Source: Psammoneis japonica
Lineage: Eukaryota
Assembly: GCA_008632985.1 (NCBI GenBank)
Contig: QPGO01000277.1
Span: 1-64,000 of the forward strand
Length of the DNA: 64,000 nucleotides
Direction: 5' to 3'
Made by a program: the position numbers and the translations under genes. Of this stretch, positions 5,901-62,692 are shown piece by piece. Position 1 is the first letter of the stretch; each line of letters opens with the position of its first letter. Below the pieces are notes generated by a model, which was not told the DNA's origin, did not search any database, and saw only the letters and a list, made by a program, of their open reading frames with translations.

Positions 5901-6047
5901 CTTGCTGTCTCTCCCACCAGCATTTAATTTGCTGTGTTGTGTTGTTTGCTTCATCATTGACTGTGTCAAGTGTGGGTGGTGATGAGGTTTCTGAGCCAGT
6001 GCTGAAGTGCAAGAGAATCAAAAATGTCTTTGAGCTTGACCCTTGGA

Positions 6048-8370: not shown

Positions 8371-8822
8371 AACAGGAAAACTCAATGTCATTTCTCAGTG
8401 CTTTGCCATGTGGCACATGAATGGCAGTGCCGTGCATGATGCTGGCAATCTTGCATGTGCAAGACAAGAGACCTGTGTTGATGCCTCATTTTCCAACAGC
8501 TCTTCTGTTGGCGCATTGCTTGCAGCCCATTGTGTGCAAGCATTGTGTGAAGCTCTTTTGTTGTGACTCAAGTCATGTCATCTGATGAAGGGATCAGCCT
8601 CACAATGTGGAATGTTTTGATCAAATCCACAGCCATTTCACAACTCATGTTGAACCCAGTGATGGCATTTTTGGGGTTCTGGAGCAGTGTCTTGTGTTGG
8701 TGCAGCCGTCAATTTGTTGCAAGATGTTTTTTGCACACATCAAGAATGTCACCTGCATCAATGCCAAGGTCAACAAGATCATTCATGCAGTGCTGCCCCC
8801 AACAATGTGCGACCCTTGCAGT
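7290..8822 (+). repeat. Second diverged direct duplication (~7290-7738 and ~8375-8822), with an inverted partial third copy at ~7738-7846
   Basis: Shared aaaactcaatgtcatttctcagtgctttgccatg...gtgactcaagtcatgtcatctgatg...tgctgcccccaacaatgtg; 7738-7846 is the reverse complement of ~8750-8860. Confidence 0.85.
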
Positions 8823-9879
8823 GCATCCACAGGGCCACGGGCATCTTGGAATGGCTGCTGAAAAGAAAAAAGCGGCCCTCTTGTCAAATTGATGTGGAGT
8901 GAAATTTCATTGGTGGTTTTGCCAGCTGAAGCAGTTGAAAAAAAACCCAGAAAACAGAGTCCTAAAATGAGGAGTTGGTGCCTGTTGAGGAGGGGCACAC
9001 CCGAGCACTTGTTCTGGATGGTGGTCTCTGCCTTGGCCTGTTCTTTTGCCAATGGGGCATCAGCACCCACATCTGACTCTTGCAGAAAGGCACTGACCTG
9101 CTTGGGGTGCATGCCAATCTGGCCTGTCATGCACTCCATGATGCCCATGAGTTCTCTTGCATTGTCACAGCAATCCGCACTGGACATGTGGAGGGTTTGA
9201 TGGAAGGTGAGTGGCGCATGTTCAGTGTCAATGATCATGTGCATGGGGGGAGGGACTTCTCCTGGTCTGCTTCTGCATCATGCAGTTTTGGATCAGCTCA
9301 AGTCAGCCAATGATGCTGGCATTGCCGTTGACATCTCTCCAGTCGCTCCTTGTGTGCTTCCATCCAGTTTCTGAGAGGTCAGGTGCTGGACAAGTGTTGG
9401 GGTGAAGACTCCACCCAAAACTTGTGATGTGATTGGCCTTGCTGGACGTAGGAACTAGTGCTGTTGATCTCCAAGAGCATCGAAAAATGACCCTCTTTGG
9501 ATGGTTTAGCTGCTAAATATTTGCTCATTCATGACAAAGATGCAATTTGTGTTCAACGATGTGTCTTGTAGACATTATTTTGAAACGAAGCATTGCTATC
9601 AAAACTACGAAGAGCCGTCTGTCTAGAGCACGGAAGAGCTCGTTGGTTTGAGCCGACAGATTCTTTGCTTCCCTCGTCTCCTGAAACGCACTGCAATGAA
9701 TTCTCCGAGACACCCAGTATCGCATGAAAGAGACTAGAGGGTTCCTTTCCATCGTGGTTCTCGTGCGAGCGCCAAGACGATTGATCGTTCACAGTTTCAC
9801 ACAAGACGTTGCAGGTGTCATGATTATCAGTGTGCATGAATGGACGAATATGGTGTTCATCACGATGAAAACATCTGAA

Positions 9880-11196
9880 TCACTCCAGTTCAGGGATGTC
9901 CAAATCAATGCTTCCTTCTCGCATGTCGGCGTTGAGGTACATGACAGCCTCGGAAACCGCAGATCGGCCATGAATCATTTGTTCGCACTTGGCCATGGCC
10001 AAAATATCAATCAATACTTCCTTGTTGGTTCTATGGTGTGATGCTAAATCGAAGGTTGGAGTCTCGTCCTTGGATCGAAGGGCAGTCCCCTGCGTTCTTA
10101 CTTGCTTCATGACTTCCTCCGGCCACTTCTTCTTCATTGTCTTTAGGGTGGATTCGGAGTCCGTTGCGAGATAAATAATGTTACCATTGGAGGCAGTGTA
10201 GACACCCTTTCTTCGTCTAATGCCAAGATACTTTAACGCATAAGGCAGGTAGTCACGCAGTTCGATCTCAGACCTCCCGCCGCTGAGCTCCTTGTCCGTT
10301 GTTCTGACATGCATTGCAAGGCATTGCTGTCCATCGCGCAATGGGTTGGCTTGTTCAACAGCCTCTAAAACCCAAGGTTTGGGATGAAAGTATCGTCGAA
10401 CAACGGTGGCAGCACGCCGTCTCATGGGTCGATACCACTGTTCGAGTGACATGGAATTCCGCTCCTCTTCTGAAATTTCTTTGTAGGGCCATGCCATGAC
10501 ACCCCAATCAATCTGAGAGTGCAAACCTGTAGCAACCTGCTCGATATCAAGCTCATAAAGAGGCTTGCTCTTGTCTTTACAAATCATGTTTCGTGCCGGT
10601 GAAAAGGCCGACACTGGTTCAAAGTAGGATTCCCATACCCCGTTCCCCTCCACAACCTCCTCCTCTAGCATTGCTCTCCGGACTTGTCTGCTTTTAAACA
10701 AGGGCGCAGGTTCGGGATCAAGCGGTACATAATCTTCTCCACTTGGAATTTCTCCCTTTAACGTTTCAAAGGTACGTGTCGGTCCAGTGCCATGAACGTC
10801 AGGGTCGTAGATGCGATGAGACGTGTCATCCAAGTGTATCCACGGCAGGAGGTTGTGTTTTTCTGCATAAAGCAAATGGTTGACCATGTAGATGAAAAAG
10901 ACTGTACCAAATGCAGCTCCCTCATCTCCCGATCGAATACGAAGGACTCCATCGTATCCACGGCAAATATCATCCTCTTTGTTGTCGTACGGCTGCGATG
11001 TTGATTTGTTCTGCGTTCGTCGTGAATTAACGGTAGTGTCAACAACAAACGTGTCTTGTCGTTGTTGTACGGAACGAATGGAGCGCTCCGCCTCCAATAA
11101 AAGTAAACAAGCAATGAGTAGAATCGCTGCAAAGGTCAATTGAAGACGTCTCGAGTGCTGACGTTTCATGTTAGACGGATCGTTGTGGGCGGTCAT
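9880..11196 (-). CDS. Type II membrane glycosyltransferase, fucosyltransferase-like (GT23/NodZ-like motifs)
   Basis: N-terminal TM segment (FAAILLIACLLLL); motifs AMHVRTTDK, IYLATDS and LIDILAMAKCEQMIHGRSAVS; intronless ORF; start codon uncertain. Confidence 0.75.
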   Translation of the reverse strand: MTAHNDPSNMKRQHSRRLQLTFAAILLIACLLLLEAERSIRSVQQRQDTFVVDTTVNSRRTQNKSTSQPYDNKEDDICRGYDGVLRIRSGDEGAAFGTVFFIYMVNHLLYAEKHNLLPWIHLDDTSHRIYDPDVHGTGPTRTFETLKGEIPSGEDYVPLDPEPAPLFKSRQVRRAMLEEEVVEGNGVWESYFEPVSAFSPARNMICKDKSKPLYELDIEQVATGLHSQIDWGVMAWPYKEISEEERNSMSLEQWYRPMRRRAATVVRRYFHPKPWVLEAVEQANPLRDGQQCLAMHVRTTDKELSGGRSEIELRDYLPYALKYLGIRRRKGVYTASNGNIIYLATDSESTLKTMKKKWPEEVMKQVRTQGTALRSKDETPTFDLASHHRTNKEVLIDILAMAKCEQMIHGRSAVSEAVMYLNADMREGSIDLDIPELE

Positions 11197-11431
11197 CGCG
11201 ACGAGCAAACCGAAGGGAGGGCACTGAATGAATTTGGTGCTTGACGCAATTTTTGGAATTTCATGATATCTTCATTCGTATATACCTCATATTTGTATGT
11301 ATTGTTCAAGCATGGATGTTAATTATTTTTATACTGTCTTCTTTTTCTCGCGTCGTACGTACGTCGTGCAACGTGCAAAAAAAAATTTTCTTCGATGCAC
11401 ATAGCATTGCGCAGAGCACGACACCATCACC

Positions 11432-12091
11432 ATGAGCTTATCGTTTGTTTCATCGGCAGTACTGTCGTCTTCGGACGGCATTTCGCACAATGAGGAACGT
11501 CAAATTGAAAGCAAAGAAGTCCAGGCGCTCCGGGGAAAGCAGACAGCCGCGAAGCCTCTCTTTGATCAATTGCGCAAAAACCAAGAGGAAGAAGAAGCAG
11601 AGCGTGAAGAATTTCAGCGCAGCATTATGCGAGGGACCTTGGCGCTGGACGAGGAAGACTGTGCTCATTTAGATAGCTTGCAAAAACAACGTCAAGAACG
11701 AGAAGCCATGGTCAAGGCTGACACAGAACAGGAACTCGCATTATTTCGTGCGGCACGAGCAGATCGAATGGAAAGTCAAGTGGTGCTGCTGTCACAGCAA
11801 GACGAAGAAACAAAGGAGCCTGCCGTTCCCGATAAAAGCCAGCAAGTCAAATCGAAACCAAAGACAATAGCTCCCGTGATTAAAGTCAAGAGACGACTAC
11901 GTCCGCCGTCAGACAAGGATGCGGATGAGAGTAAAGTAGAAAGCAAGACAAAAAAGCAAAAACAGGAAACCAAGGAGACAAGCAATACAACCGGCACTAG
12001 TAAAAGCGACAACGCCGATGAAACAAAGGAGGAAAACGGCCTAGGAGGCTTGTTGGGTGGCTATGGATCCTCAGATGACGAAAGTGATTGA
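11432..12091 (+). CDS. FAM192A/Fyv6 (PSME3IP1/NIP30)-like nuclear protein
   Basis: MSLSFVSS start, KPLFDQLRKNQE, ALDEEDCAHLD, ELALFRAAR, C-terminal LLGGYGSSDDESD. Confidence 0.8.
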   Translation: MSLSFVSSAVLSSSDGISHNEERQIESKEVQALRGKQTAAKPLFDQLRKNQEEEEAEREEFQRSIMRGTLALDEEDCAHLDSLQKQRQEREAMVKADTEQELALFRAARADRMESQVVLLSQQDEETKEPAVPDKSQQVKSKPKTIAPVIKVKRRLRPPSDKDADESKVESKTKKQKQETKETSNTTGTSKSDNADETKEENGLGGLLGGYGSSDDESD

Positions 12092-28432: not shown

Positions 28433-29503
28433 GTGCCGACAGCAACAACACAAGTTGAACTCGAACGAAAAAAAAAATACCGAAGGAGTGTGCGGTGTGG
28501 CGATGAGATGATGAGATTCACGTTGCGCTCAGTACATTTCCTACGCAGCTTCTACGCAGCATCGCCAGGTCACCCGGCTGTGTTCTGTGCCTGGGTGCGT
28601 CATGACGAAAAGTTCAACTTGCACAAACACGAACCAATTGGTGGCGTTTTGATTCCGTCGACTGAGCTGATTCTGTTGCGAACACCTTCTTTACGTAAAC
28701 ACCGTATGAGATTTACATACGAAGTCAATACCAAGATCCGACGCCACGTGCAAACTAAGTATTGGATGTACATGACCACTGTTGAACCAGATCCAGACAC
28801 AACGCCGAAGTTCGGCCAAGTGGCGCGTGTGGCTGCGCGATGGACGAGTCGTGTCGCCTTTTCTGCTTTGGGATAGAATTCGAGCGCCGCATGGCAGCCT
28901 GCGTTGAAGACAAGAACATGCCCCCCCACTGCTCTGCGATGCACCCTCCCACCAGTTCCTGCAGCCGTGCATGAAGAAGGTGCCTTCCAGGCATCAAAGG
29001 ACAGACAGGAGGAGAGCATTGATGAGCATGGCAGCCAGCAAGCACCAGCGGGGGACTTTTTTGGCGCGCAAAGTTGGCTGTTTTCACAAAACAAAAAGAG
29101 CCCCTCTGTGCCATGCTCTCCCACTGCCCTGCTTTGTGCTGGTTTAAAGAGCAGAAGAAAGGAGAAAGACAAGGCAGCAAGCTTCAGCCATGACACTCTT
29201 GTGGAGCTGCAGCAGTGCCTCGCCTGCACCCTCGTCCACGCTGCCTCTGCAGCAACAAAGCTTTTCTCTTTGCACCACACCACCAGGGGCGCTTTTCTTG
29301 CATTGGCTGTTGTGAACAACTCCTGTGCACTGACAGAAAGCACACCTTGTGGAAAAATCCAAAAAAAACAGCAGCACTTGGTGTGGCTGGCACTGGCAGT
29401 GCTTGGAAAAGAAACGCCCCTTTTCACTTTCCCCAGACATCAGTCTGGAAGGCTCAGGTCCAAAAGGAGAAGAGGTGCAGCAAGAAGTGGGCAACTCAGA
29501 TGA
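28433..29503 (+). pseudogene. Unknown ORF interrupted by one TAG (28874-28876); 3' half is TpA-depleted
   Basis: ORFs 28433-28876 and 28904-29503 are in the same frame; Tyr is present before the stop and absent after it. Confidence 0.4.
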
Positions 29504-29935
29504 TGATGTTGTGCCAGCAGCACGGATGTCAAGCTGCCGCAAAAGCAGCGCCCCTTTCTCTCCAAGAAAAAAAGAAAGCTCTGTGTGGGTGCCCCCCCCT
29601 GCTTGTGCCTGCAAGATGCAAAAATGTTAACCACCGCAGTTGTCCGTGACAACATCAGCAGTTCTTGGATGTTGGATTTTGGAATTTGGAAGCTGTGCTG
29701 CGCAAGAGCACAGGCAAGAGAGCCCGGGGTGAGCGAGATTGGCCATGATGCTCTGTTTCTGCAGAGCTGGTGGACATTTTAATTCAGAGAGTTGCAGTTT
29801 ATGTTGCAGCACAGTTGTTGCATTTTGCGTTTTGCTTCATGTAAATGACTTGCTCAGCTTGAAATTGATCTCCGTTGATGACATTGAATGAACAATGATT
29901 GCATGCATGTGAAAACCAGGTTTCCGTTGGAGTGC
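28880..29935. other. Isolated TpA-depleted domain of about 1 kb, probably repeat-derived
   Basis: Only a handful of TA remain (tttaaa, gttaac, tttaat, tttatg, tgtaaa), against normal TA frequency on both sides. Confidence 0.7.
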
Positions 29936-30250
29936 AACAGACTCTAGAAGTGTAAAAATGATCGCACTACTGTACGCGCAACTTCGGGAGGGCTGCGATT
30001 GACCTGCCCTCATGTCTGAATATCTTTATGAAATGCACCGCTGCTGCCAACGAACAACGAGCAGAGACGACAATGACCGAGTCCGCCGTCCACCGCCGTA
30101 GTTTGCTGCCTGACTACGTCGCCCATTGCACCGATATCAACCTCTCCTTGCTGTAGTCACTCTCTGTAACTTACGACGGGAATCTGAATCAATCGCTCTT
30201 TGATCTTGTCGCAATCAGATCTGTATTCTTTTCTGAATCACGTGAACAAC

Positions 30251-31998: not shown

Positions 31999-32430
31999 CT
32001 ATCCGCTCGTTGGATTCTTCTTGCTCTTCTTATGGAGTGGTTGTTCCCGGGTGCTGTTACTGCCGGGTAGCGAATGAATATGATGACGACGACGTCGACG
32101 CCTAGAAGAGTCGCTTACTGCAGCTCCCTGCCCATCATATTGAATGCCGGAATTGATGGGAACCAAAAAGGACCAAACGTGCTTCATGACGGCGAGTGGA
32201 ATGTTGGCGCTCAAAGACAATTTATCCAAGATCATGCGCTGCGTATCCACTAGTTGCATCAGATCGGCAAATTTCCGAAGCACAAGGTAGTAGATCGTTG
32301 GCACAGCACCGCGGCTCAAGTCCAAAGGGGTCTCGTTGTGTTCATTCTTGACCACAAGAGTAAAAGGGTCTGCCTCGATCAGTGCGTCAATGACCTCGAC
32401 TGTATTCGTGAGATCTTGGCCTCCAGAAAA
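31999..32430 (-). pseudogene. 3' portion of an ankyrin-like-repeat gene whose 5' end runs into the transposon cluster
   Basis: VEVIDALIEADPFTLVVKNEHNETPLDLS resembles an ankyrin-type repeat; the upstream in-frame sequence is TpA-depleted and not gene-like. Confidence 0.5.
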
Positions 32431-33414
32431 TGAGCTCCCTGCCCATTGTTGCCATTGCTGTGGTTGTTGCAGAACAGAGTGCGTCTTTTGAAAGAGAGAA
32501 AAACAGGAGCTCTTCCTCTGAGCAGGGAGAGGCCAAAAGGAAGAAGAAAAAACCAAGAGGACAGTGGAGCACGCGGGACCCCGTTTTCCGTCACCGTGCT
32601 TTTTGTGTGACAAAAAAATCTCATCCGAGCTCGTGCTTTCCCCCAATTTTTCGCATCTTCTTTCATCAGATCTGCTCATTTTCATGGACCGGCTGCCTTC
32701 TTTGTTCATTGAGGGTGTGGACAAAAAGAGAAAGCTCTTTCAGAGTCAATTTTTTGGTCTAAAAATGACAGGAAACCGTGCGCGGCAGTTTTCCGAACGA
32801 CTTTGAGTCACTGTTTCTCTGCTTCTTTCATCCGATTTGACTGTTTTGAAAGGATGTCCACATTCTCTGTTGTGCAAAGAGCTCACAGCAAAAAAAGAAT
32901 GGCACTCTAACTCCATTTTTTGCATGTGAAAAATCGGGGGAACTGACTTCACACGCACCCTGATTGTCACAGAAAATCTGTGTCGATTTGAAAATTGGGG
33001 GTTGCATGAAAAATCAAAATTTTCATTTTCCCCTGTTTTTCACGTGTTTTCAAACATTTTGACTGAAGAAAAGTCGTCGTGTCGAGAAAGGGGGGCACAA
33101 CCAATGTCGGTCGTCCATCATCTCGAGCATGCACTGGATGGCACCACGTGAGTGCGAGTCAGAGAGGGGGCAGCCAAATGTCGCCTTGTGACGTGCGCAT
33201 CAGAAGCTCACTGCTCGTGCCCCTGGCTTGAAGACGTCAGTGCTCTCGTCTCAATCGGTCTCGCTCATCATTCGACCCACCAACGAGCTGACGTGCTGGG
33301 TGGGAGACATCATTGTTGTCATCACGTCTGGCGATTCAGCAGCAGCCTCAGTCATTGTAACTTTTGATGCTGAGACCAAGCTGCTGCACAAAGTTTTGCT
33401 GTTTTACTTGTGCA

Positions 33415-34460
33415 TCACGAAACCCAACGAAAATTTGTTTCAGACAAGACAAACCGGCTCTCTTGCAGCCACGACTGAAGAAATGTCACAACAAATGTTG
33501 CAAAATGTCCCAACTTCTCAATGGGTTCCCATTCATCCAAGCACTCTGCTTCAAAGGGTGTGCATCCCATCACAATGGAAAGCTGTGTGATGTTCGCCAC
33601 TGTTTGGAAGACAAGGTGATGCGTTGATCGATCATGACGATGTGCTCTTGTCATCATTTGGAAGCGCTTGAACCAACCGTTGACAGCTTCGTGGCGGGCA
33701 CGAGCGGTGGTCTTCATGCATTGGTCGGCATTGCGCAGGCCGGTCGGGGCCACACAGTGCTGGTGTCCGTCACTGTGTGCCCCATCAGCTGAGCAAAACT
33801 CTCCATCTTGAAGTTCACAATTGATCGCCTCTCGTGCTGTGCTCAAATCAGGAATGCCAGCTGGGTGGGGGGCATTCACCCAAACTGTCCAACCTGTCAA
33901 AATGCGTGTGGCGATTTCGCACCCAAGCCCTGCGCCATTGAATTTGTGCGAATGCCAGATGGGGTCGAACGGCGATGGTTCATTGATGCGACAGTCAGTG
34001 CCGTCCACCGTCACCTTGCATGCGCTGCCATTGTCATCCACAAACCTGTTCTCCCAATCAATCTGTGATGAAATTGTGGTGAATCAAATGTCAGTGCATT
34101 GATTTTCAAAGAGAAATTGGAGTCATGGTGCGCACCAAGTTCAAATTCGCAATTGGCGCCATCCCAACCCACACCCATTTTCTCAACACATCCTCGTGCA
34201 TGCCACCGCAGATTCTGGCCATTGTGGTTTCAGCGTCACACAGTTTCAGAAAACAAAGTGTGTGCAACAAATGAGTGGGCAGAAATCCGCGTGGGATGCA
34301 GCCATCATCTTCAAGAAGGCCCCACAACTCACACACTGCGTCTCGCGGAGAGCAGAAGTGTGAGGCAAATCTGCGGTTCCAAATCCGTTGTGACCTCATC
34401 GGCCTCTGGATGACTGTCCCCACAAGACAATCTGCTGTGGCTTTGGGCAGGCGCATTTGC
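33415..34460 (-). pseudogene. Harbinger DDE transposase (intron 34135-34063); frame open but Tyr-free
   Basis: HLLHTLCFLKLCD, RKWVW, IDWENRF, VTVDGTDCRINEP, WHSHKFNG, VWVNAPHPAG, ADGAHSD, RARHEAVNGWFKRF, VANITQL. Confidence 0.9.
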
Positions 34461-35353
34461 ATGGTGAGCAACACAGACGTGTGTTGCGCGCACGATGTTC
34501 CATGTTGTGTGCTAAAAAGATTGCTGCTGCGCCAGTTCCGTGCAGCAGTGTTTTTGTTGCCGCAGGTGGATTGATGGCCGGGTGGGGTTCTCATTCATTT
34601 CCAACGTCTGACAACAAGGTTTTGATGTCAGGCCTTTTAGTGAGACTCCCTTCGAGAACGCTTTTGGTGCGGTCCCGGAACGGTGGAAACACGGGAATGA
34701 TGAATGCCTGTTTCGTCGAATGGCATTTCCGTGTTGGAGCTGTTGGCGGTTGCTGCAGATGTGGTTTAGCGCCAAACAATGCTGGCAGTTACAATGAACC
34801 CTCACAGCTCAACTCACAGCCACTGTAAATCAAAATCATTGAGACTTCCAACAGTCGTTCTTTTTCTTAGAGAAAATGGAAACCTGTTTTGATGGGTGTG
34901 CCTTTTTGCAACAAATCCATCTAATCTGCCAAACTTTTACACTGTTGTGCCATGCTCAAATGGTTCTGACAATGGCGCACTGGCTGCAATGCATCACATG
35001 TCTCATCGGCAGATTGAGAGGCTCCAAAGTTTGATTTCTGCGCGAATCAGTGCAATCGAGAACATTCTCGGAACGGTTTTGGAACACTTTTGGAACGGCA
35101 CGCAAGGGAATCTTGAGCTCCAATGCTTCACAACAGTCCCCCCCGACAGGCCTTTTTTTGGTTTTGGCGGTTGCAGTGGTTTCAAATTTGCCGGGACTTG
35201 CATGTGTGGGGTTGACCATCCCACACAAAGAGAGAGTTGAGACGGTCATGAACAACTCAAATTGGAGTTCGGGATTCGATGCGAACCTTGCCACAGTGTG
35301 GCAAGCAACACGGCATTCAGAGGATTTGCAGCTTGCCTCGTCATAAAATTGAG

Positions 35354-36420
35354 AATGGTGACCAACACACACACTGTGGTGCAAATGAACACAAGGAGCA
35401 AGTCAGTGCTTGGCACTGACTTGAAGCCGCCTCCCGCCTTTTGAAAAAACTTGCCCGACTGGACACTGCTCAGGGATCTCCTGTTGCAAAAAAGGGTCAA
35501 TCCTGGAGCGTCACCAAAGGAGGTTCAGTCCATGCGTGCAGAGTTTTTGAAGCATCCTCTTGCCAAATTTGCACTCAGCTGTGCAAGCTGAGGAAAGAAA
35601 CTGGTTTCAACCTGTGTCAACGAAGCGCTGATGACAGCACTGCACCACCGGCAGATGACGGCACTGGTGGAAGTGAGTGTCGCCACATGCTGCACTTTGT
35701 CAAATGAAACAGAATGCACTCTCATGTTGCTCTTTTTTTCTCTTGACTGTTGTCCACTGTTTCAAAAGGGGAAGACCTCAACATGGACAAGGACAAGCTC
35801 TCAGCCGACATCGGCCTGTCGTCAGCCAAGGAAACCGGCAGTTTTGCAGCTGTCGCCCCCACTGCTTTGGACCCCCCAGCATTTGAGGACGACCAGACAT
35901 TCAAGCCCATGGTTTTGCAGGCGACCTGCAAGGATTCTGTCAACAAGACAGACCATGTGGTGCTGGTGATTGTAGCTCCCTCAGGAGCATGCACTGAGGA
36001 CCTTTCTAGCTTCAAGCTCACGGTGACGGGTGGCGGTTGGTTTTTACAGTGCACCTCCGAGTGGCCGGGTCACAGCATGGACATGGACTCACTCCATGCT
36101 GTGCTGGTGGAGGAGGCACAATCCAAGGAGACCAAGAGCTCAGGGATGTGTGCAAGCGCCTGAGGCACTTTCGGATCAGTTGTCCTCCATGAGGTTGTCA
36201 GACAGCGATGTTTTGGCATCAACAGCCACTGTTTCCTTTGCCCATCAAAGTGTCGAAAAAGATTGACAAGGTTCATCTTTTGGGGGGTGAGGATGGTTCA
36301 AGAATTGTGTGTGTTGACCTCAAAGCTGAGGACTCAACATGCCGCTCTGTGGAGAGCCCCAAGGTCATGTTGATTGATGGCACCACTTGCATGGAGAAGC
36401 AGGGTGCGCGGCGTTTCTTT
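35354..36420 (+). pseudogene. Harbinger accessory (second) ORF, degenerate
   Basis: Lies within the TIRs, divergent from the transposase; MNTRSK...LRDLL...PKEVQSMRAEFLKHPLAKF, then a probable intron from gtgagt (~35673) and DHVVLVIVAPSG; contains stops and frameshifts. Confidence 0.55.
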
Positions 36421-37935
36421 TCATTTTACACTGTTTTGGTTTTCACAGCAGCAACAAGGACAAGTGTGGCGGCTGTCATTGGAAATGCCAGCAGTTTAGA
36501 ACATCAGTTTAATTGCATCATTCTTACTTCTTAGCACAGCAGTGTCTTTACGTCTTAGTTTCAATCCACAAAACATCGTTGACAACAACACCGCGTAGCC
36601 TCCGCTGTTGGCTACATCGATGCGAGCACGGGCTGCCACCTCGGCACCGCAGTCGGCAGCATCGGCTATCGGCATGCGTGCTGTTCGCACGATCCTGAAA
36701 ATGCGAGAAAAACAGGGGAAAATGAAAATTTCGATTTTTCACGCAACTCCCTGTGAGATTGTTTTGGGGTCCGAACAAATTCTGCGAAGTCATTGCAACG
36801 GAAAATCTGGAATCTGGACCCCACACAAATGCATGCAGGGTGTGTGCAGACCATGCCGGGCCCACTTTTACCATGCCGGGCCAACAGAAGGGTTCTTCAA
36901 AGACGCACTGGTTTGGCCAATTTTGGCAAAAACCAACCCCAGTTTTAGCCGAACACAATTGAAAATCTGTGCTTTTCAAAAATCTGCAACTGTTTCTGTG
37001 GACCCCTTGAAAATCTGCAAGAAATCTGAGCCCCAAATCTGTGCCACAGATTTTCCATGACAATCACGGTGCATTTTTTGCGTGATCCGCTGTTTCAAAG
37101 ATCAGCTGATTTGTCGACCTGTGTGGGAGTCTTGAGTCAGTCACATGCCAGCAGCAAAATTTCAGCATCAAAGTTGGGTGAATGTGGAGCAATTGAGTCA
37201 TTTGACGAGCAGAAGCAGAGGCAACAATGAAATGTTGACAGCACTTCAATGCCCAATTGACTGGCCCCACCTCAGAATGAAGCAAAATGGCTGCAAAACA
37301 CAGATGTCACTAAAAGCGTTGTTCTGTTTTGCAACATCGCAGCTGCCAGATTCGTCCAGTGGCTTCTCAACCCCCATGCACCCTCACAACTGAGTGCAGA
37401 ATCATTCTTTTGTTGGCGCCAATGTTTGATGCTTGTGTGCGACCCAAAAGCACAGTCCATGCCAACACTCAAAGTGCACTCAACCCATCATAAAAAGCAC
37501 ACTGACACACCACAATGACGTGTGATGTTGCTTGCATCAAGCATCAATTCAACAGAGCCTTGCATTTTGAACAACACTGCACTGCAATCTGAGGATGAGC
37601 AAAAGAGGCATCAAAAATGTCGTGAGACGAAAGGCTGTCCAGAAGACACAACAAACGGCAAACATCAAAATTTCAGCCACATCATTGCATTGAGCTTAGT
37701 CTCATTGACCCATTTTGCCATTCTTGTCTTCTTTGACATTGCGGATGTTGGTGTGAGGATGGTTGAGTTCATGGCGGTGGCATGGGGCCATTTTTGATGT
37801 GCACAATTTGTGGATGAGACATGAAAAAAAGACAGCATCGCACGGGAGCTCAAAAATTGCACGCGACTGTGGTGCAAAAAGTGCGTGCCACAGAGAAATG
37901 CACAGAAAACCTCGCGCATTGTCCCCGAGTGACCC

Positions 37936-40184
37936 CAGGGACACAAATGTCCAGTCAGATGGGATGTGACACGTGGCACAAAAAAATGGGCCCTTTGCGT
38001 TGATTTTAAGGTTTGTCCACATGTTCGTGCACAAACAAAATTTCAATGTTCAAAATTGACATGGGCAATCCCTTTGATGGGCCAAAAGTGAGGGAAACTG
38101 AGTCTCAACGCACACGCACAGCTCACACTGACATGATGCCACATTGCCATCATTCTGCTGTTTTCTCCTTCGTGATTCCACTGTTGCTCTCCCTTGTGGT
38201 CACATGCCGATGCACTCACTTCTCCATTGGCTTGTCATGAGCAAATGCATTTTGCAAATGCCATTGTGCTCCTCTTGCTCTTCCATTTTGTTGCTTCTTG
38301 TGGTGTGTGAGCATTTTCTGAATGCCTCTCATGTTGCTGCATTGCATTGCATTGGATGCATCAAATTTTGCCATGCCCCTCATTGCATGTGTGCGTCTTC
38401 CTTTTTCTCTTTTCAGCTGCTCATTGAAACTTGTGCACAAGAAACTCATGTGAAAGCGACCAAATCGACAACGCAACTCGGTTCCTCCAGAAATGCCACA
38501 TCATGAAAAAGCAAATCCGAGCGACTTTCAGCATCCATCGCAGGAGTGGCGTGCATGACATGCACCAGCACTGAAGCAAGAGGGTGCACATCTGGTGTCT
38601 CTTTCATTTGTTGCTGCACCCCACAATGCGCCCCCAATTTTTTGGCTCTGTTTCTTCTCCTCAGGCTTGGTTTCCTGCATCTGTGGCAAACAGCAGTTCC
38701 CGTCTGCTGGCACTTAGATTGGCGGGGTTCTTGACATGTTTTGCATCTGGCATCTCTTTGTTGCAGTGCCCCATCCAATGCAATTCTAAATTTTAATTCC
38801 GTTTCTTCACCTTGGGTTTTGCATCCACGGCCTTCACCTTTTCCTTCAGCTCTTGCCAAAAAGCTGTCAAGCTTTCTTTCTTGCCTCCATGCTGGAAGTT
38901 GAGGGATCGATGCCGCTTGAGAGCAAAGGCAACACAAGCATGAAATGTCTTCAGCACTGCCTCTTTCAGCAGTGGAGTGGCGACACTGTCATCATTTTGT
39001 TTGGCAAGTGTTTGAAATGCAGCCAGCCAGTTTGGCATTTTCGACAGAGCACATTCTTGTGCAATCTTTGCTGCTTCATTTCCTTTTTCTGATGTTTTCT
39101 TTTCATCAACATTCACGGCAACTTCATGGACAATCTCACGTGCAAGCACAACACAAGAGTTGGGTGCATCAAAGCAAGTCACCCTTTGTTGAAGAAGTGA
39201 TCTTCCACTCAGCAGCATCTTTCCAAATGCACACAGTTGCTCACAATGTCTGCTTCCATTGCGCTCATCATGCAATTCAGCATCCTCCACCTTTCCTTGT
39301 CATGAGCACAGGCAGCATTGTCCTTGTCATCATCAGAGAGCTTTGACATTGAGCTGAACAGAGCCCCTCCCACAAAGCGGCAGCTGGGTGTTTGGCGGCA
39401 GTGGCACAACGGAGCTCTCAAATTCTGGAGAAGAGAGCCTCGACATCAGACTGATTGGGGTGCAGTGCTGGCATGAACTTGGGTCCATTGTGAAGATTCA
39501 AAACTGCTCTTGCGTGGGAAAAGAACAAAGTGCAATTCCAACATTGCAGGCTCTGCCATTTCATGTCATTCTTGCTGCACTGGAGGTTGTTTCAAGCTGC
39601 TTTGCACTCGTGAGCTGAGCAGCTCCACACTGGGTTGGGCACACTTTCCTCATCACCATTGTCTTTGTCATCCCGCAGCTTCTTGGAATCAGCTGCTGGT
39701 GCAGAGCACTTTTGGCTGAACGTTCAGCAGCCCACCCAGGTGCACTTTGTTTGTGTCTTCTCTGGAATCAATGCCATCCGCTTCTCCCACCAACACAAGG
39801 GGAGTTTGTGCATCACACTTTCTGTCCAAATTTTGCCTTGCTCTTCAAGGACGCTCTTGAACAGACTTGGCAGTTCTCCGCAGATGCAGGTTAAATGATC
39901 AGACACCATGGTTGATGCAGTTGGTCGGGCAAGAAGTGAGCTTGTCTTTTCTCTTGCACGATGTCCACTTGTGTTGGTGCTGTGTCAAAGCGTGTTGTTT
40001 GATTTTTTGTTTTCCCTCACTTTTGGCCTGTCAAAGGGATTGCCTGTGTCAATTTTTAACACTTGATTTTTGTTTGTGTGCCCATGTTGGACAAACCCTG
40101 AAATCAATGAGAAAGGCACAAGACCCCCCTGCAGCCGCCACGTGGGCATGTCACATCCCATCTGACTGGACATTTGTGTCCCTG
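37936..40184 (-). mobile_element. DNA transposon with ~165-bp imperfect TIRs and an 8-bp TSD (P-element- or hAT-like), degenerate
   Basis: Termini cagggacacaaatgtccagtcagatgggatgtgaca / tgtcacatcccatctgactggacatttgtgtccctg; flanks agtgaccc (37928-37935) and agtgagcc (40185-40192); internal minus-strand motif NQSDVEALFSRI* (~39460-39418). Confidence 0.85.
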
Positions 40185-40913
40185 AGTGAGCCACCTGGGT
40201 TGAAAACACATCCAAAACCTGTGCGCAAAACAAAAAGTTCCTTCTTCCCCATGGTGGCACACACACACGAAAAAAGATTGAAGAAAAAGTCATTTTTGCA
40301 TTTTTGCAGCCAATCTCTGGTCTTTTTGAGCCACTGGACACAAGTCAAGCTGTTGTTTGCTGTCCCTTTTACCAAGTTGGTCAGGCTTTGGCTTTGGGGG
40401 TTTCCATCCTCCATTGGCAGGGGGGGGGAACTGCCGAGGCAGCAACGCGAAGCTTCTCAACACACACCCGCAGAAGCGCGCTGCCCACAATGACAGCCAG
40501 AAGGTTCAACCCCTTTCAAAAACACACAGAAGTGGCTCTCACATTGTCGCTTTTGCTTGTCTAAACCTGCACCGGAATGAGGTGCTATCTTGGCTGTCAT
40601 TTTGCTCGTCGTGCAAAATCTTCTTTGGACTCTCGACTTGTTTGAGTTTCGAGGGAAAACTGTTAAAAATCCATGTTTTTGTCTTTCTTCTTTTTTCAAT
40701 GTATTTCGTGAAAATGAAAAGGAACACGCTACTCCCATTTTTTGAGACATCGATTCCTCTTTCAGAGCATTGTCACGTGTCAATTATGAAGAAACATCAA
40801 ACTTGAAGGAATCTCTCTTTTATTTCTTTTTTGCGGTGTGCGTGTGCCGATGAAACGTGCAACAACCGACGGGTCTGGCAGAACACACCAACAACACAAA
40901 ATCGTTCAACACC

Positions 40914-42601
40914 ATGACGACGGAAGCAGCCGAAACAGCCATACTCAAACACCTATCGTCCTCCCGGAGGCCACGATTGAGGATACCTTTGTATGGTCCG
41001 GAGGAAACAAGCTCGATCATATTGTCGTGGTGGGAGCCGTCAAGAGTCTCATGGCCGACGAATACGTCGCGGCCAGCAATCTGGAAATGAGCTTTTACAC
41101 GCTTTCCAAGGAAGCTCAAGATATTATCGAGAATGGTTCTCAAGAAATGATCGTACTAAAGGCTGTATCCGAAGCGGGTAAAATAAGCATGAAGGATTTA
41201 CAGAGCAAGGTAGGAAAAAACGTTGCGAAAATTGGAATGGGAAACTGCATGAAGTCCAAGTGGATCAAGAAGGAGGGAGCCGATCTGGTTCCAATCAAGC
41301 AAGCTGATGAAGTTGAAGATGAAGTTCAAGCAGCCTTGAAGGGATTGTCGAACGCAGATGGGAACCCTGACGCCATTGACGACAAGGTGAGTTTTTCGGG
41401 CCGCAACAGGTCCCTTCTGTAAAACAACGGTATTTTGACTAATCATATTGTTGAATTTCCGCAGGTTCTCGCGGGTCTCAAGCGTAGAAAGCTTATCAGT
41501 CTCGTCACTAGAAAGTCATATCACATCTCTCGAGGCCCCTCGTATGCCATAGAACGGGTGAAAAAGGCTGCAGATCTTACAAAGGAAATGTTAGATTTGG
41601 GTTCTTGGGAGACGACTCCCTTCAAACCGTACAACTTTGCGACTCTTGGCGAAAAGGTGGGAGGAGGCTACTTGCATCCGCTCTTGAAGGTTCGAGCCGA
41701 GTTTCGAAAGATTCTCATGGAGATGGGATTCCACGAAATGCCCACAAACAAGTGGGTCGAGTCGTCCTTTTGGAACTTTGACAGTCTCTTTCAGCCGCAG
41801 TCTCACCCCGCCCGTGATGCGCACGACACCTTTTTCATCAAGGAACCCGCCAGCACCTTGTCTGTACCAGAAGAGTACTATGAGCGAGTCAAGGACATGC
41901 ATGAACGCGGTGGATCTGGATCTATCGGATATCGTTATGACTTCAAGAGAGAAGGTGAGTTTTAGAGTTTGGTAAGGAGCGTGTTTGCAGTCGTTGTTGC
42001 AGTGTGAATCTAAATAGCTTCGCCTCTGCGTATCATTAATCGTTACACAGAGGCTATGAAGAACTTGTTGCGAACACACACTACGGCAATTTCTTCGCAG
42101 ATGCTCTACAAGCTTGCCAACCAAGAGGGTGGCTTTACCCCGCAACGGTACTTTTCGATTGACCGCGTCTTTCGCAATGAGACCATGGACGCAACTCACT
42201 TGTGCGAGTTTCACCAAGTCGAGGGCTTGGTTGCCGACTATGACTTGTCGTTGGGAGATTTGATTGGAACCATTGAAACCTTTTTCAAAAAGATTGGAAT
42301 CACACAGCTTCGCTTCAAGCCAGCCTTCAACCCGTACACGGAACCGTCCATGGAGATTTTTGGTTACCACCCAGACTTGAAAAAGTGGACAGAGATTGGA
42401 AACTCGGGAATGTTTCGGCCGGAAATGTTGGCGCCCATGGGCCTCCCAGAAAATGTGCGAGTGATTGCTTGGGGTCTCTCGTTGGAACGTCCCACCATGA
42501 TCAAGTACCGAATCAAGAACATTCGTGATTTATTCGGACACAAGGTGGACATGGCGAGAACGCGTACCGCACCCATTTGCAGGTTCGAGGCGGCTGAGTA
42601 G
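40914..42601 (+). CDS. FARSA: Phenylalanyl-tRNA synthetase alpha subunit, cytosolic (3 exons)
   Basis: [69 protein letters not shown]. Confidence 0.97.
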
Positions 42602-46133: not shown

Positions 46134-47794
46134 ATGTTGCTGCGCCATTCGGTGATGATGGCCCAGGTCACAAAGATGGTTGCAGTTGTGCCAGGATTGT
46201 GCTGGGCTCTTTCATGTGGGCCCAAGAGCTCCATGAGACCGTCTCTTTTTTGGACTACTCGCTCCTTGGAATTTCCAAGAAGCGCACAACTACGGATGGG
46301 GAGAATGACGACGTCAACAGAATTCGTGGAAGAAAATCTTGCAGATTCTGTTTCGGTCGAAGGTCGTTTTCTTATTCACTGGAAGTAAGTTTTTGGGAAG
46401 GGAGATGCTTTGTCACAAATACTAGTGTGTATCTAATGTCTATAAATCTGCAAACATTTTGTTTTGTAAAGAGGCGAAGATGTGGAGGGTTACAGCATGC
46501 AGTTTCGACACATTGAATTCTGTGGTGCATTGTCTGCCGTGTTGCAGAATCCGCCGAAGAGTCGATTGCCGGTTGAATTTAGCAACGCCTTGAGTTATAG
46601 TGGAGGGGAGTTATGACAGACTTGAAAGTTACATGTTTCAATGAAGCAATGCAATACGTCGATATGCCAAACCTGTCAAAGGACGCCTTGATGGAAGCTG
46701 CGAAACGTTGCTCCTTGATTCACGCCGTGTACCAAATTGTGGCAGATGGAAAGGATTACTCTGAATTTGCACCACTCGTCAGGAAAATGGGAGCTTTGAT
46801 GACATGATGATGGGCGGCAACCATGAAAAATATACTTGGTGTGTCCGCGTCAGACGCTACGGTGAAATCACTGGTGATCCCAAGGAAAAGAGATACGGTG
46901 CAAGAGCCAGATCGATGAAGCTGGAAAGAAAAGCGTTGAAGGCATTGAAACCGCTCCTACTTAAATTCGGAGGAAAAGTTCACCTCGAAAATCCAGACTG
47001 TAAAATTTACGTGTTTGATGGCTTGAAAGGGGGAAAGAAGGTTCTTGCGAGGAGAATAGTCTCTGGTCCGAGGGTAAGCAACCGCATAGAGAGTGTTTCG
47101 TTTCTTTGCGCTTACTTTCGCTCACTTCTTCGATGTTCGATTTTGTATCTAGACATCTATCATTGCTCCAAAGACGAGAATATGCGAAACAAACACTCCG
47201 CTTTGTCCCATTGCCGCCTTTTCGTTGTGTAATGTTGCCGAACTACGAAATGAACACGCCGTGCTTGACCCTTTTGCAGGATCGTGCGCAACCCTGCTTG
47301 CTGCTGTCATGATTGCACCTGGATCCAAGACTGTTGGGATTGAAATTGCTCACAACGGCTTGGTCAATAGAGACGATATCCGCAAGGACTTTTCCACACG
47401 GGGATTGACCCTCCCTGTGGATCTTATTCACGGTGACTCCAGCAGCCAAGTCGTCCGTGACAAGGCAAGGCGTGCAATCGGGAACCGACCATTTGACGCA
47501 ATCGTGACTGATCCACCTTATGGGATCCGTGAGAGTAAGAATTCCAACACGGAATCTCCACTCGTGGAATTGTTTCGTGGAATTGCTTTTGACCGTCAAC
47601 AGGGTAAGCCACTGTTGCGAGTAGGGGGGAAACTGGTAACGTTCGTACCGTGCCAGCATGAGGAAGAAGAGCTGAGCGAGTGCATGCCAACGAAGGAACA
47701 AACTAGAGAAGCTGGACTTCGATTGGATGAAATGCGGGAGCAACCTCTTAATGACAAACTCAGTCGGTGGCTTGTAGTGTACACCTGTGTCTAG
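46134..47794 (+). CDS. SAM-dependent RNA methyltransferase, TRM11/TrmG10-like (multi-exon, frameshifts)
   Basis: SIIAPKTRICETNTPLCP, VLDPFAGSCATL, FDAIVTDPPYGIRE; start uncertain. Confidence 0.78.
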
Positions 47795-51781: not shown

Positions 51782-53374
51782 TCAAGAGAATTGCATTCTG
51801 AAAGAGTTTCTAAAGTCGCGCTGGTGGAGGAAGAGGTTGGCTGTGAATTTTGTGCCTCTCGTTACAGGAAGAACCTCGTGATGCAACTTATTCTCTGCTT
51901 CATTGGGATCATTGTCCAAAACGTTTGCCCAAAGCACCGCCTTTCCTTTCTTTGGAGTAATTTTCTTTTTGTGGAGTACCCCAAAATGAGTTTCCCCGCC
52001 TTGAAAATCATCGTTGAGAAAGAACGTGAACGTCAAAATACGAACTCCACAGGGTCGCACCTTGTGAATCACGTTGTAGTCGTGGTGAACACCATGTCGC
52101 TGACCCCTTTGATATCGGGATAGCTGAAGCGGCTCTGCGTGTTCTTTCGGCACACCCGTCAAATTCGCAACACGATCAAGTAACCGTTGAATCACGGGGT
52201 CTTCTTCACAAGTATAGTCACACCAGCTACGGAATGGGGTGTTGTAGGAAGAAGCCCTGAACGAATAGGTTCCACCCACTTTGACTTCAATCGTCACTTC
52301 TTCAGATCGTCCATAGACGCGTCGCTCACCATGATACAGCATTCGTTCAATTTCGTCGTCGGAAAGAAAGTTGTCAAACGTAAGAAACCACGGTCCAGGA
52401 TTCGATGTTGTTCCCTCTTTGTAGGGACGATAAAGAATTGATGGAGAGTACCCAGCGAAATCATCTCTCTCGATCATTGTCTCAAACAAATCAGTCAAGT
52501 CTCCCTTCTTCTTGAGAACATCAATTGCATTATTCGAATCCATTTCACATTGTTTTGCTACATCAACCACATTGCAACTGTGGCAGGCAGGGGCGCACAA
52601 AGGATTGTATTGCCGGGTTTCTGCAGTGACCTTGTGCCGCCCATATTGAACACATTTCATTTCCATTACGACAAAGTTCTCGTGCCGCGGCGCTTCTTGG
52701 ATCAGCCATTACCTGGCGCATATAATGTATGCTTTGATGAATTACAGCGGCCACCAACGTGTTGTTCTCGTCTTGTTTCTGTCGAACGCCAAAGTCGACC
52801 CTATTGTTTGAAGCAGAAAAGGAGTGAGCGCAGCCCAGAAACCCAATAAGCAATTCAGAAGATATTCATTAAGCTCACGTTTGACTAGTGCTGGACTTGC
52901 AGGCTTTACATGCTTTGGGACAGTTCGACAGCATGAAATAGGGGTTCCTTGCGCATTGATTCTGTCTTTCCCATGTTGCGCACTGAGCATGATTGTCAAC
53001 GCAAGGCTCGGTAGAAACTGGTTCATTCCTACTCATTAACGAACGAAACAGTACCTTAGATGGAATATTGATCGGTGACTCCAACATGAGACACGTATTA
53101 CTTACGTTCTACATACAAAACAGCTTCTTGGGCATTTCTTGCTCATGAAATCAATGTTTACAACGCATTCTCCCTGATGCTCCCAAGCCGTACAACGGTC
53201 GTCCAAGTCTTTACACTCATCGGTGGTTCTCGAGGCGTCGGTAGAACTTGTGGAGCTCGACGGTTCATGCTCATCATGATGCAAGCATTTTCCGTCAATC
53301 GACACGCAATCGCCGAGAACTTGTGACGACAATGACGAAAAAACCAAAGGCACAAGAATCTGTTGGACCTTCAT
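51782..53374 (-). CDS. Secreted ShK-domain prolyl 4-hydroxylase-like protein (multi-exon)
   Basis: Signal peptide; ShK repeats (CKDLDDRCTAWEHQGEC..CPRSC, CVDNHAQCATW); catalytic motifs HHDY, RILTFTFFLND, GGETHF, LHHEVLPVTRGTKF. Confidence 0.88.
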
Positions 53375-61090: not shown

Positions 61091-61327
61091 CCGAAGCTCA
61101 ATAACACGGCCTCTGTTACCTCATGGTGATCATACCATAGAGGCAAACTGAGCGATGAGCGATGAAAGCAAAACGGAATAAAAAATGGAAAACGGCATCA
61201 TTTTCGCGATTTCCCGGTCGACACACGGTCGGCGGGATTATGCGCGCGCGCGCGAGATTGACGACTCACTCGAGCTGGACAGAGCAGTCGAAGAAGTCGT
61301 CATGAAGATCTGACGAAAAAATCTTGG

Positions 61328-61475
61328 CAGCGTCCTCATTTTCAATTTGCCTTTCCACCATGGGCAATCCGCTCCGCGGCCTGCGAGTGTTGGATCTTTC
61401 CCAGCGTCCTCATTTTCAATTTGCCTTTCCACCATGGGCACTCCGCTCCGCGGCCTGCGAGTGTTGGATCTCTCC
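61328..61475 (+). repeat. 74-bp tandem duplication spanning the CoA-transferase start codon
   Basis: 61328-61401 and 61402-61475 differ at only 2 positions. Confidence 0.95.
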
Positions 61476-62692
61476 CGTGTATTAGCAGGACCATGGTGCA
61501 CCATGCTCCTTGGAGACGCTGGTGCTGACGTTATCAAGCTTGAACGAACCAAAACTGGAGATGAAACGAGAAATTGGGGACCACCGTTTGTCAACGGCGA
61601 CGTTTCAACGTACTTTTTAAGTGTCAATCGAAACAAGAGTTCAATCGCGGTAGACATTAAAACAACGGAAGGATTGGATCTATGCCGTCGTCTTGCAACA
61701 GAGTGGGCGGATGTACTTGTCGAGAATTTCAAGGTTGGAACAATGGAGCGACTGGGTCTCAGCTATGAAACATTGAGGCAGGAGAATCCAGGTCTCGTTT
61801 ATTGCAGTATTACTGGGTTCGGAAGCACGGGACCACTGAGCAGTCGACCAGGATACGATGTCATCATCAGTGGGATGTACGGTCTCATGTCAATCACAGG
61901 AGAAGAGCATGGAGATCCCGCCAAGGTGGGAGTTGCCATTACAGACGTGGTGGCGGGTACTCTGGCGCACGGAGGTATTCTTGCAGCCTTATATCAACGA
62001 AACCGGACCGGACGCGGTCAACAAGTGGAAACATCACTCATGGAGACGCAACTCGCCTCCTTGGTCAACATTGCCTCCAGCTCACTCAATAGTCCAGAGG
62101 GAACGCCGCCTCCACAACGATGGGGTACCGCACACGAGTCCATTGTGCCTTACCAAACTTTTCCATGCAAGCACGACGACGGTGAGGAAAAGCAATACGT
62201 GGTTGTTGGAGCTGGAAATGATTTACAGTTTAAAAAATTGTGCAACGCCATGGGCATGGATGAGGTGGCAAGTAGCGATCGATTTAGAACAAACGCGGAT
62301 AGGGTGAAAAATCGCAACGAGCTTGTTGCTGTGCTAGAAAAGAGATTTCTTCAAAAGACACGAAATGAATGGGTAGACTTGTTGAGTGACAAGGGTTTCC
62401 CGATTGGACCCGTTCGATCCGTTCCTGAGGCGTTTGAATGCGAACAGGCCATTCATCGTGGCATAGTGACAGAGATGAACCATGTTGTTGCGGGAAGATC
62501 AAGTTGCCAAGGACTCCCATTTTGTACGTGGGCGAGTCAACAGACAATTTGGATAAACCAAAACCACCTCCCATGCTTGGAGAACATACCGAGGAGATCC
62601 TCACCAACGTTCTAGATATGACTCCTGGGGAGGTTCGAGCATTAGAACGAGCCGGGGTGATCGAGTGTTGGCGGCAACAAGAGCCAAAGTAG
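61434..62692 (+). CDS. CoA-transferase family III (CaiB/BaiF; succinate-hydroxymethylglutarate CoA-transferase-like); frameshift ~62495
   Basis: PLRGLRVLDLSRVLAGP, GDETRNWGPPF, NRNKSSI, DVLVENF, SITGFG, RPGYD, PPMLGEHTEEIL. Confidence 0.95.

Follow-up and report, generated by a model that had tools for sequence, protein, structure and literature searches.

The 64,000-bp window that we analyzed (positions 1 to 64,000 of contig QPGO01000277.1, Psammoneis japonica assembly GCA_008632985.1) contains long blocks of degenerate repeat DNA, including the relic of a PIF/Harbinger transposase, from which the dinucleotide TpA has been almost completely erased. By its sequence, the window was read as nuclear DNA of a raphid pennate diatom. 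We conclude that these transposon relics were probably the target of TpA hypermutation at the DNA level, a claim that leaves the identity of any enzyme aside. The TA sites that survive are those with particular flanking bases, and the products and aligned relatives described below show which base is changed and in what direction.

We counted surviving TA sites in two main blocks, 1600-9445 and 32410-40560 (15,997 bp together), and used the remainder of the window (45,343 bp, 1638 TA) as the background for class counts. The main blocks retain 52 TA, or 3.3 per kb where the background has 36 per kb, distributed over CTAA/TTAG (16), GTAA/TTAC (14), TTAA (10), CTAC/GTAG (6), ATAA/TTAT (3), CTAG (2), and CTAT/ATAG (1). 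The initial annotation of this DNA had described the survivors as mostly TTAA, CTAG, CTAA/TTAG, and TTAC/GTAA, with a few ATAA/TTAT and GTAG/CTAC; this list stands apart from CTAG, the importance of which was overstated (2 of 52). The four contexts that it reported as absent from both stretches (GTAC, ATAT, GTAT, and ATAC) indeed account for none of the 52 sites. Grouped by flank, with R for purine and Y for pyrimidine, the main blocks hold 0 RTAY, 28 YTAR, and 24 mixed sites, versus 478, 293, and 867 in the background (Fisher's test of RTAY versus YTAR, P = 3.9e-12; three-class chi-square = 49.9, P = 1.4e-11), in agreement with the earlier claim that RTAY is gone while YTAR persists. Counts of NTAN tetramers in depleted versus genic DNA, which the initial annotation had proposed as a check, differ among contexts (ten-context chi-square, P = 1.4e-13), and the uniform depletion that would have spoken against its claim was rejected under a Poisson model (deviance = 78.2, 9 degrees of freedom [df], P = 3.7e-13). 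The flanking-base preference is strand symmetric and context specific, as had been suggested, and the order of survival is identical in both blocks (TAA/TTA > CTA/TAG > GTA/TAC > ATA/TAT). From the first-order composition of the blocks themselves, 10.3 RTAY sites were expected and none was seen (chi-square, P = 6e-5). The result also held against background outside open reading frames (ORFs) alone, with 103 RTAY and 108 YTAR among 439 TA (Fisher, P = 4.3e-8).

A 1-kb scan of the window detected three outlier stretches with a TA odds ratio (rho) of 0.0 to 0.2, versus ∼0.5 elsewhere, and with TG and CA raised to 1.5 to 2.3. The features of the TA-poor DNA are as follows.

Positions 1-9445: block A, TA-poor, most extreme from 1600 onward, with no TA in 3001-5000.
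Positions 1-1599: head of block A, where erasure is less complete; 13 TA left, 3 of them RTAY; symmetrized rho TA 0.15, CG 0.60, CA/TG 1.41.
Positions 2-209: tandem repeat that opens the TA-poor head; 42/84-bp unit, 4.7 copies, 83% matches.
Positions 1600-9445: core of block A, degenerate repeat DNA erased of TA and CpG; 14 TA in 7846 bp; rho TA 0.03, CG 0.09, CA/TG 1.92.
Positions 6046-6562 with 7846-8369 and 7283-7735 with 8367-8821, plus strand: internal duplications of block A, with identities of 90.5% and 87.3%, respectively.
Positions 28875-29780: block C, small and TA poor, with a gene on either side; 2 TA inside, both TTAA.
Positions 32410-40560: block B, TA-erased repeat DNA, the stretch flagged by the initial annotation; 38 TA in 8151 bp (RTAY 0, YTAR 21, mixed 17); rho TA 0.07, CG 0.54.
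Positions 33415-34083, minus strand: Tyr-free relic of a PIF/Harbinger DDE transposase (of the DDE_Tnp_4 kind), recognized through homologues.
Positions 37936-38097 and 40011-40184: diverged inverted repeat pair of block B, 75.6% identical over 176 bp, with TG-versus-CA double differences.

The region of block C (28880-29940) has rho values of 0.08 for TA, 0.36 for CG, and 1.65 for CA/TG. When the head (1-1599) and the small block (∼28880-29940) were included with the main blocks (18,657 bp, 70 TA), there were 3 RTAY and 39 YTAR sites (Fisher, P = 4.8e-13).

Survivors alone are ambiguous, as they could reflect either the base 3′ of the A or the base 5′ of the T, and we therefore examined the products. 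If an A that precedes a pyrimidine is hot, RTAR and YTAY should become RCAR and YTGY; the opposite reading predicts RTGR and YCAY. Within the window, the product excess over background was 378 for RCAR/YTGY versus 183 for YCAY/RTGR, and, assuming that CpG decay is shared evenly by both classes, the TA-derived product is nearly all RCAR/YTGY. Metagenome segments with intact CpG (see below) gave an excess of +121 for RCAR/YTGY versus +21, and their mass balance by class, as TA lost versus product gained, was 165/142, 96/83, and 57/68. Polarized alignments pointed the same way: YTAY became TG 15 times and CA twice, and RTAR became CA four times and TG twice, so that 19 of 23 changes were as predicted (P = 0.0013). 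An additive model with one flank fits the counts (deviance = 9.0, 6 df, P = 0.17), in which the loss term per strand is 3.17 where T follows the A, 1.70 for C, 1.04 for G, and 0.30 for A. The rule is that 5′-TAY becomes TGY, which on the opposite strand is the change of 5′-RTA to RCA. Both strands of RTAY are hot, and both strands of YTAR are cold; therefore, RTAY vanishes first and YTAR lasts longest. We also considered a dimeric enzyme that recognizes the palindromic RTAY, which is unnecessary given the fit of the one-flank model; the small sample of tyrosine columns discussed below speaks for caution on this point.

The transposase relic of block B established the direction of the change. 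It has 46 homologues (best identity, 64%), many of which carry PF13359 (DDE_Tnp_4), and we assigned it to PIF/Harbinger on that basis. Near-invariant tyrosine (Tyr) residues of twelve homologues are cysteine (Cys) or histidine (His) in the relic, corresponding to TAY changed to TGY or CAY, and the 510 bp of relic examined contain no TA. The 16 TA sites of a nondepleted relative (L001) are CA (8), TG (6), or other dinucleotides (2) in the window copy and TA in none. The 39 TA sites of a second relative (L016) are TG (18), CA (10), other (8), or still TA (3) in the depleted metagenome contig L012. In both comparisons, the TG and CA of the reference mostly stay as such in the depleted copy. The direction is from TA to TG or CA. 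We then surveyed the best 150 representatives of the transposase family from a library of 1.84 billion proteins (median Tyr content, 3.5%). Seven had ≤1% Tyr, and at four Tyr columns these seven carried His 12 times, Cys 11 times, phenylalanine 3 times, and Tyr never, whereas the other 143 carried Tyr 421 times, Cys 5 times, and His 4 times. The near-equal shares of Cys and His indicate that both DNA strands are hit. P0061 is a further Tyr-free relic.

Of all symmetrized dinucleotides, only TA and CG are depleted in the blocks and only CA/TG is clearly enriched, with the GC dinucleotide slightly up (1.21 versus 1.01). AA, AC, AG, AT, and GA are unchanged, and GC content is 0.49 versus 0.48 in the background. 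Because GC content is flat and the changes are limited to a drop in TA and CG and a rise in CA/TG, GC-biased gene conversion is excluded, consistent with the initial annotation, which had disfavored it. The enzymatic signature proposed there is supported as an interpretation of the pattern; that an enzyme is its cause is what we infer.

Loss of CpG is a separate, slower process that accompanies the loss of TA. The two are separable because TA is erased where CG is normal, both at 33001-34000 (rho TA 0.03, rho CG 0.79) and in the metagenome segments (CG class ratios, 0.92 to 1.15). CpG loss has its own context dependence: TCGA is the most depleted (survival of 0.02 in block A and 0.39 in block B) and GCGC the least (0.41 and 1.24, respectively). 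Two other accounts were considered and set aside. A loss restricted to CpG, driven by decay of 5-methylcytosine (5mC), does not fit TA loss that is stronger than CG loss and that also occurs at normal CG class ratios, and a single enzyme behind the loss of both TA and TCG (compare amphioxus ADAT2 on TCG), which the strong depletion of TCGA might suggest, sits poorly with TA loss without CG loss, so that we treat the two losses as separate. Separately, we noted that the products are locally asymmetric, with CA versus TG at 2.33 versus 1.64 in 4001-5000, 2.10 versus 1.50 in 39001-40000, and 2.2 to 2.4 versus 1.4 in positions 11001-11949 of metagenome contig L048, and about equal elsewhere. This asymmetry may be the trace of a process that depends on orientation.

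The same signature was recovered from independent metagenome assemblies. Contigs scanned with the transposase alignment provided 80 loci, among which we identified eight TA-poor segments on six contigs (L012, L013, L042, L048, L072, and L073; 6475 bp in total); L070 was excluded as a duplicate of L073. These segments retain 36 TA (0 RTAY, 19 YTAR, and 17 mixed), versus 3598 RTAY and 2837 YTAR among 13,240 TA at the remaining loci (Fisher, P = 1.8e-7). The contigs are likely of diatom origin; no named relatives emerged when the P-type ATPase of L012 was searched for homologues, and the clusters of eight Tyr-poor relic proteins likewise yielded no names. The edges of TA-poor domains are graded in L012 (1-2000) and in L072 (3501-7000 and 8001-9000), with rho TA values of 0.3, 0.1, and 0.3, unlike the sharp gene-side edges of the window.

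Several observations indicate that the change was confined to particular regions. In the remainder of the window, DNA outside ORFs shows rho values of 0.69 for TA and 1.08 for CG and a normal RTAY share (103 of 439); because TA and the RTAY share are kept there, the process is not genome-wide, as judged from this 64-kb window. Block B occupies the entire spacer from a minus-strand ORF ending at ∼32410 to the PheRS gene, and TA density is normal (∼37 per kb) within 100 bp beyond both of its edges. Among contigs of one DNA run, depth was ∼56 in the unique flanks and summed to 100 to 2300 over block B, on which 951 contig pieces could be placed at 85 to 100% identity. Nearly all of their differences from the window are transitions (A>G, 115; G>A, 119; C>T, 140; T>C, 91; each transversion, 6 to 15). 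Of three runs, all from one sample and one study, run X3 contributed no pieces. Based on the summed depth and the diverged copies, block B consists of members of repeat families. The TA-free zone also extends over 32410-32626 and 40156-40560, which lie on single-copy contigs although block B is otherwise multicopy, a point that bears on any dependence on duplication of the kind known from repeat-induced point mutation (RIP). Either the process spread past the repeats at these edges or the edges are older relics.

The internal duplicates of block A, still 87 to 90% identical, show many TG-versus-CA double differences within identical flanks, and these imply that a single ancestral TA or CG decayed separately in the two copies. 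Since decay is complete in copies that remain this similar, TA loss must be far faster than ordinary substitution. The TA-free sequence itself is reproduced by k-mer contigs of the DNA run, for example, over 671 bp without a difference at 38797-39467, which makes an assembly or base-calling artifact unlikely; the run, for which no library type is recorded, possibly derives from the source sample.

We propose that dead, multicopy transposon DNA of the diatom nucleus was hit by a region-targeted hypermutation acting on DNA, which would turn TpA into TpG or CpA by A:T-to-G:C transitions on both strands. The agent would be an enzyme targeted to DNA that is silenced or foreign. An enzyme is suggested by the narrowness of the motif, by regional limits that are sharp, by loss at a rate that greatly exceeds that at other sites, and by the TpA-only hypermutation that has been observed directly in another alga. 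The leading candidate is a nucleic-acid adenine deaminase with a T-A-Y preference, which would convert A to inosine, read as G; we consider the case for adenine deamination as the chemistry to be about evenly balanced. TadA/ADAT2-type adenine deaminases, including the DNA-active forms (amphioxus ADAT2/3 and engineered adenine base editors), likewise convert A to inosine that is read as G. In the natural tRNA substrates of TadA and ADAT, a U precedes the target A, and TadA reads U-A-C-G, which resembles T-A-Y. We favor a deaminase because a change of A to G after T recalls this U-A and because the same chemistry has been proposed for the other alga, Bigelowiella natans.

In B. natans, TpA-restricted hypermutation affects integrated DNA of nucleocytoplasmic large DNA viruses (NCLDVs) and virophages (Mettrop et al., bioRxiv 10.64898/2026.01.13.699255). 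According to this preprint, 231 of 302 new single-nucleotide mutations in mutation-accumulation lines fell in two integrated viral regions, where all but one were A-to-G or T-to-C changes and every such transition lay on TpA. The TpA rate was ∼1000 times the background, in some lines only; coding sequences poor in TpA and rich in CpA and TpG were enriched in DDE endonuclease and reverse transcriptase domains, and the authors propose adenine deamination. The TpA-only change and regional confinement of the diatom blocks match this kind of hypermutation. In both cases TpA alone is converted, to TpG or CpA and on both strands, within particular regions (of foreign origin there; the Harbinger relic and multicopy DNA here), and the long-term trace consists of TpA-poor clusters rich in CpA and TpG. 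The cases differ in host (a chlorarachniophyte in Rhizaria there, a diatom in Stramenopila here), in target (single-copy viral inserts versus multicopy transposon relics), and in extent (rho TA of 0.45 in the NCLDV region versus 0.03 to 0.07 here, which is near saturation). They also differ in what can be seen, as mutation was caught live in B. natans and only end states are available here, where the flank rule (TAY hot, YTAR last) is resolved. The diatom case is thus the same signature in a different branch of the supergroup, on transposons, near saturation, and with its motif resolved. Decay in copies that are 87 to 90% identical gives an indirect hint of a high rate as in B. natans. The main text of the preprint contains no flanking-base analysis and does not mention diatoms. 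Our literature search turned up neither a description of TpA loss from the transposons of diatoms nor a documented counterpart of the order T > C > G > A for the base 3′ of the A.

Two better-known processes offer partial parallels. Like the change described here, RIP in ascomycete fungi inactivates repeats by mutation of both strands in a dinucleotide context, in sharply bounded blocks whose reading frames are destroyed. RIP turns CpA into TpA, so that TA is enriched and GC content lowered. Its direction is therefore opposite to that in the window, where TA is lost and GC content is level with the background. PMC3318451 also gives the direction of RIP as CpA to TpA, and diatom DNMT4 is related to the fungal RID, with no RIP reported in the relevant passages of PMC9998398. 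Decay of 5mC at CpG in methylated transposons yields the same TG and CA products and is present in the same blocks (rho CG of 0.09 in A and 0.54 in B), but its target dinucleotide is a different one, and the loss of TA can be told apart from it.

Other explanations were weighed against targeted TpA hypermutation by adenine deamination. The thymine might be altered instead, if a TET/JBP-type dioxygenase or a similar enzyme modified the T in 5′-RTA-3′ of silenced DNA (e.g., to hydroxymethyl- or formyl-uracil), causing it to mispair with G and change to C. An A-to-G change in one strand appears as T to C in its complement, so that a change of RTA to RCA fits the product and polarized data equally well, and base J and the hydroxymethyluracil of dinoflagellates are placed preferentially at T before A. 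We nonetheless regard this route as unlikely: hydroxymethyluracil readily pairs with A and is a weak mutagen, the literature that surfaced on 5-hydroxymethyluracil concerned dinoflagellates and not diatoms, and no such enzyme is evident in the window, whose sole match to a 2-oxoglutarate (2OG)-Fe(II) oxygenase is of the general PF13640 kind. Still less probable is error-prone repair in methylated heterochromatin, in which repeated excision at 5mC or its deamination products would be followed by patch filling with a polymerase eta-like enzyme that misinserts G opposite T at WA (W, A or T). The blocks are probably methylated, as they lose CpG too, and polymerase eta does give A-to-G changes at WA. 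Yet AA, itself a WA motif, is not depleted (rho of 1.15 to 1.32 versus 1.17), TA is nearly gone where CpG is untouched, both in the metagenome segments and at 33001-34000, and we know of no link between a 3′ pyrimidine rule and polymerase eta.

We consider it highly improbable that element transcripts were edited from A to I by an ADAR- or ADAT-type enzyme and then fixed in the genome by reverse transcription. A preference of RNA editors for U before the edited A, noted in the Discussion of the B. natans preprint, would suit such a route. The recognizable affected element is, however, a DNA transposon, and the strands were hit about equally, with Tyr changed to both Cys and His in one ORF, His and Cys nearly level in the family survey (12 versus 11), and TG enrichment about equal to that of CA. 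The change also runs uninterrupted over heterogeneous relics into the single-copy edges of block B, AA is untouched, and TAG survives better than TAC and TAT. ADAR accepts U or A as the 5′ neighbor, prefers G after the A, and disfavors U there, the reverse of the pattern here. It is, moreover, described as metazoan specific (PMC3239186). Equally improbable is an absence of targeting, in which unconstrained DNA would have been shaped over a long time by a neutral mutation bias of the whole genome or by GC-biased gene conversion. TA is somewhat underrepresented everywhere (rho ∼0.5 in genic DNA), which would suit such a bias, but non-ORF background retains TA with a normal RTAY share, GC content is not raised, AT, AA, AC, and AG are unchanged, and a context model is needed to describe the loss. 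The sharp edges and the completed decay in the still similar duplicates of block A speak against it as well. Errors of sequencing, base calling, or polishing at modified bases have a negligible probability. Long-read base callers err at modified motifs, and these regions are probably methylated, but the k-mer contigs (depth ∼56) of the run that is possibly the source sample reproduce the sequence, the signature recurs in independent metagenome assemblies, and, where flanks are identical, one paralogue reads TG and its counterpart CA, contrary to what a deterministic miscall would produce.

Several points weigh against the reading that we favor. At two conserved Tyr columns in six partly depleted relics, all 4 pyrimidine-preceded codons are intact and 7 of 8 purine-preceded codons are changed; the sample is small, but the contrast exceeds the prediction of the additive model, and the base 5′ of the T may also contribute. 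The head of block A retains three RTAY sites, at 73, 1058, and 1217. The ancestral mix of NTAN contexts was borrowed from genic and non-ORF background, and the mix of the elements themselves may differ. The metagenome contigs are assigned only to eukaryotes, with Bacillariophyta the commonest group in one of three top clusters. The rate of TA loss is derived from end states, with no de novo event seen in the diatom data. Finally, amphioxus ADAT2, described as the only natural ADAT2 tested on DNA, preferred GAA for adenine (GAA and TCG in Escherichia coli DNA) and not TAY (PMC10354150).

If true, targeted hypermutation in P. japonica would extend a TpA-only process described in one preprint for one rhizarian alga to diatoms, which are major and genetically tractable phytoplankton, and would extend genome defense by mutation from viral inserts to ordinary transposons. 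The flank rule, with A before a pyrimidine and the order T > C > G > A, sets the specificity that any candidate enzyme must reproduce and argues against ADAR-like editing, polymerase eta-like repair, and gene conversion. More tentatively, and with more doubt than confidence on our part, diatoms and chlorarachniophytes might share an adenine counterpart of RIP, in which mobile or viral DNA that has been silenced would attract a natural adenine deaminase acting on DNA, and 5′-TAY-3′ would be converted to TGY in either strand until no TpA is left. Such a defense arm might be widespread in the Stramenopila-Alveolata-Rhizaria (SAR) supergroup and could supply a natural adenine editor that works on duplex or chromatin DNA. 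Base-editing work would have an interest in a natural enzyme, if real, with the adenine of nuclear DNA as its substrate.

There is also a consequence for annotation. DNA that is free of TA keeps only TGA stops, and gene callers therefore emit long spurious ORFs in many frames. Public protein collections contain Tyr-free or Tyr-poor "proteins" from TA-erased relics (P0061, P0107, P0118, P0148, P0131, P0185, P0221, and P0235), and such spurious entries make up 7 of the best 150 representatives of the transposase family. The 135 ORFs of the blocks in the window gave no significant Pfam family, the top match being to a Mutator-like element (MULE; E = 0.03), and the Harbinger relic is the sole named element in the blocks.

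Elsewhere in the window, the 46 background ORFs are housekeeping genes by Pfam, including those for photolyase, glutamyl-tRNA reductase, PheRS alpha, alpha-mannosidase, and RPL4; none of them is an intact transposon usable for comparison. The best named relatives of a 463-amino-acid ORF at 9880-11271 on the minus strand are in Nitzschia, at 52 to 57% identity. The ORF at 47153-47791 (plus strand) encodes an RMKL-like methyltransferase domain (PF01170) with a weak, below-cutoff match to PF01555 (N6_N4 DNA methylase), and that at 51785-52708 (minus strand) encodes the PF13640 2OG-Fe(II) oxygenase; both are probably ordinary housekeeping enzymes, with no evidence tying either to hypermutation. 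In the PheRS gene region (41294-41353), contigs of the DNA run differ from the window at adjacent pairs (41294/41295 and 41329/41330), which are probably allelic or strain variants. The window includes one N, at position 14187. A 74-bp tandem duplication, 97% identical, lies at 61328-61476, at the 5′ end of an ORF of CoA-transferase family III (61314-62612, plus strand).

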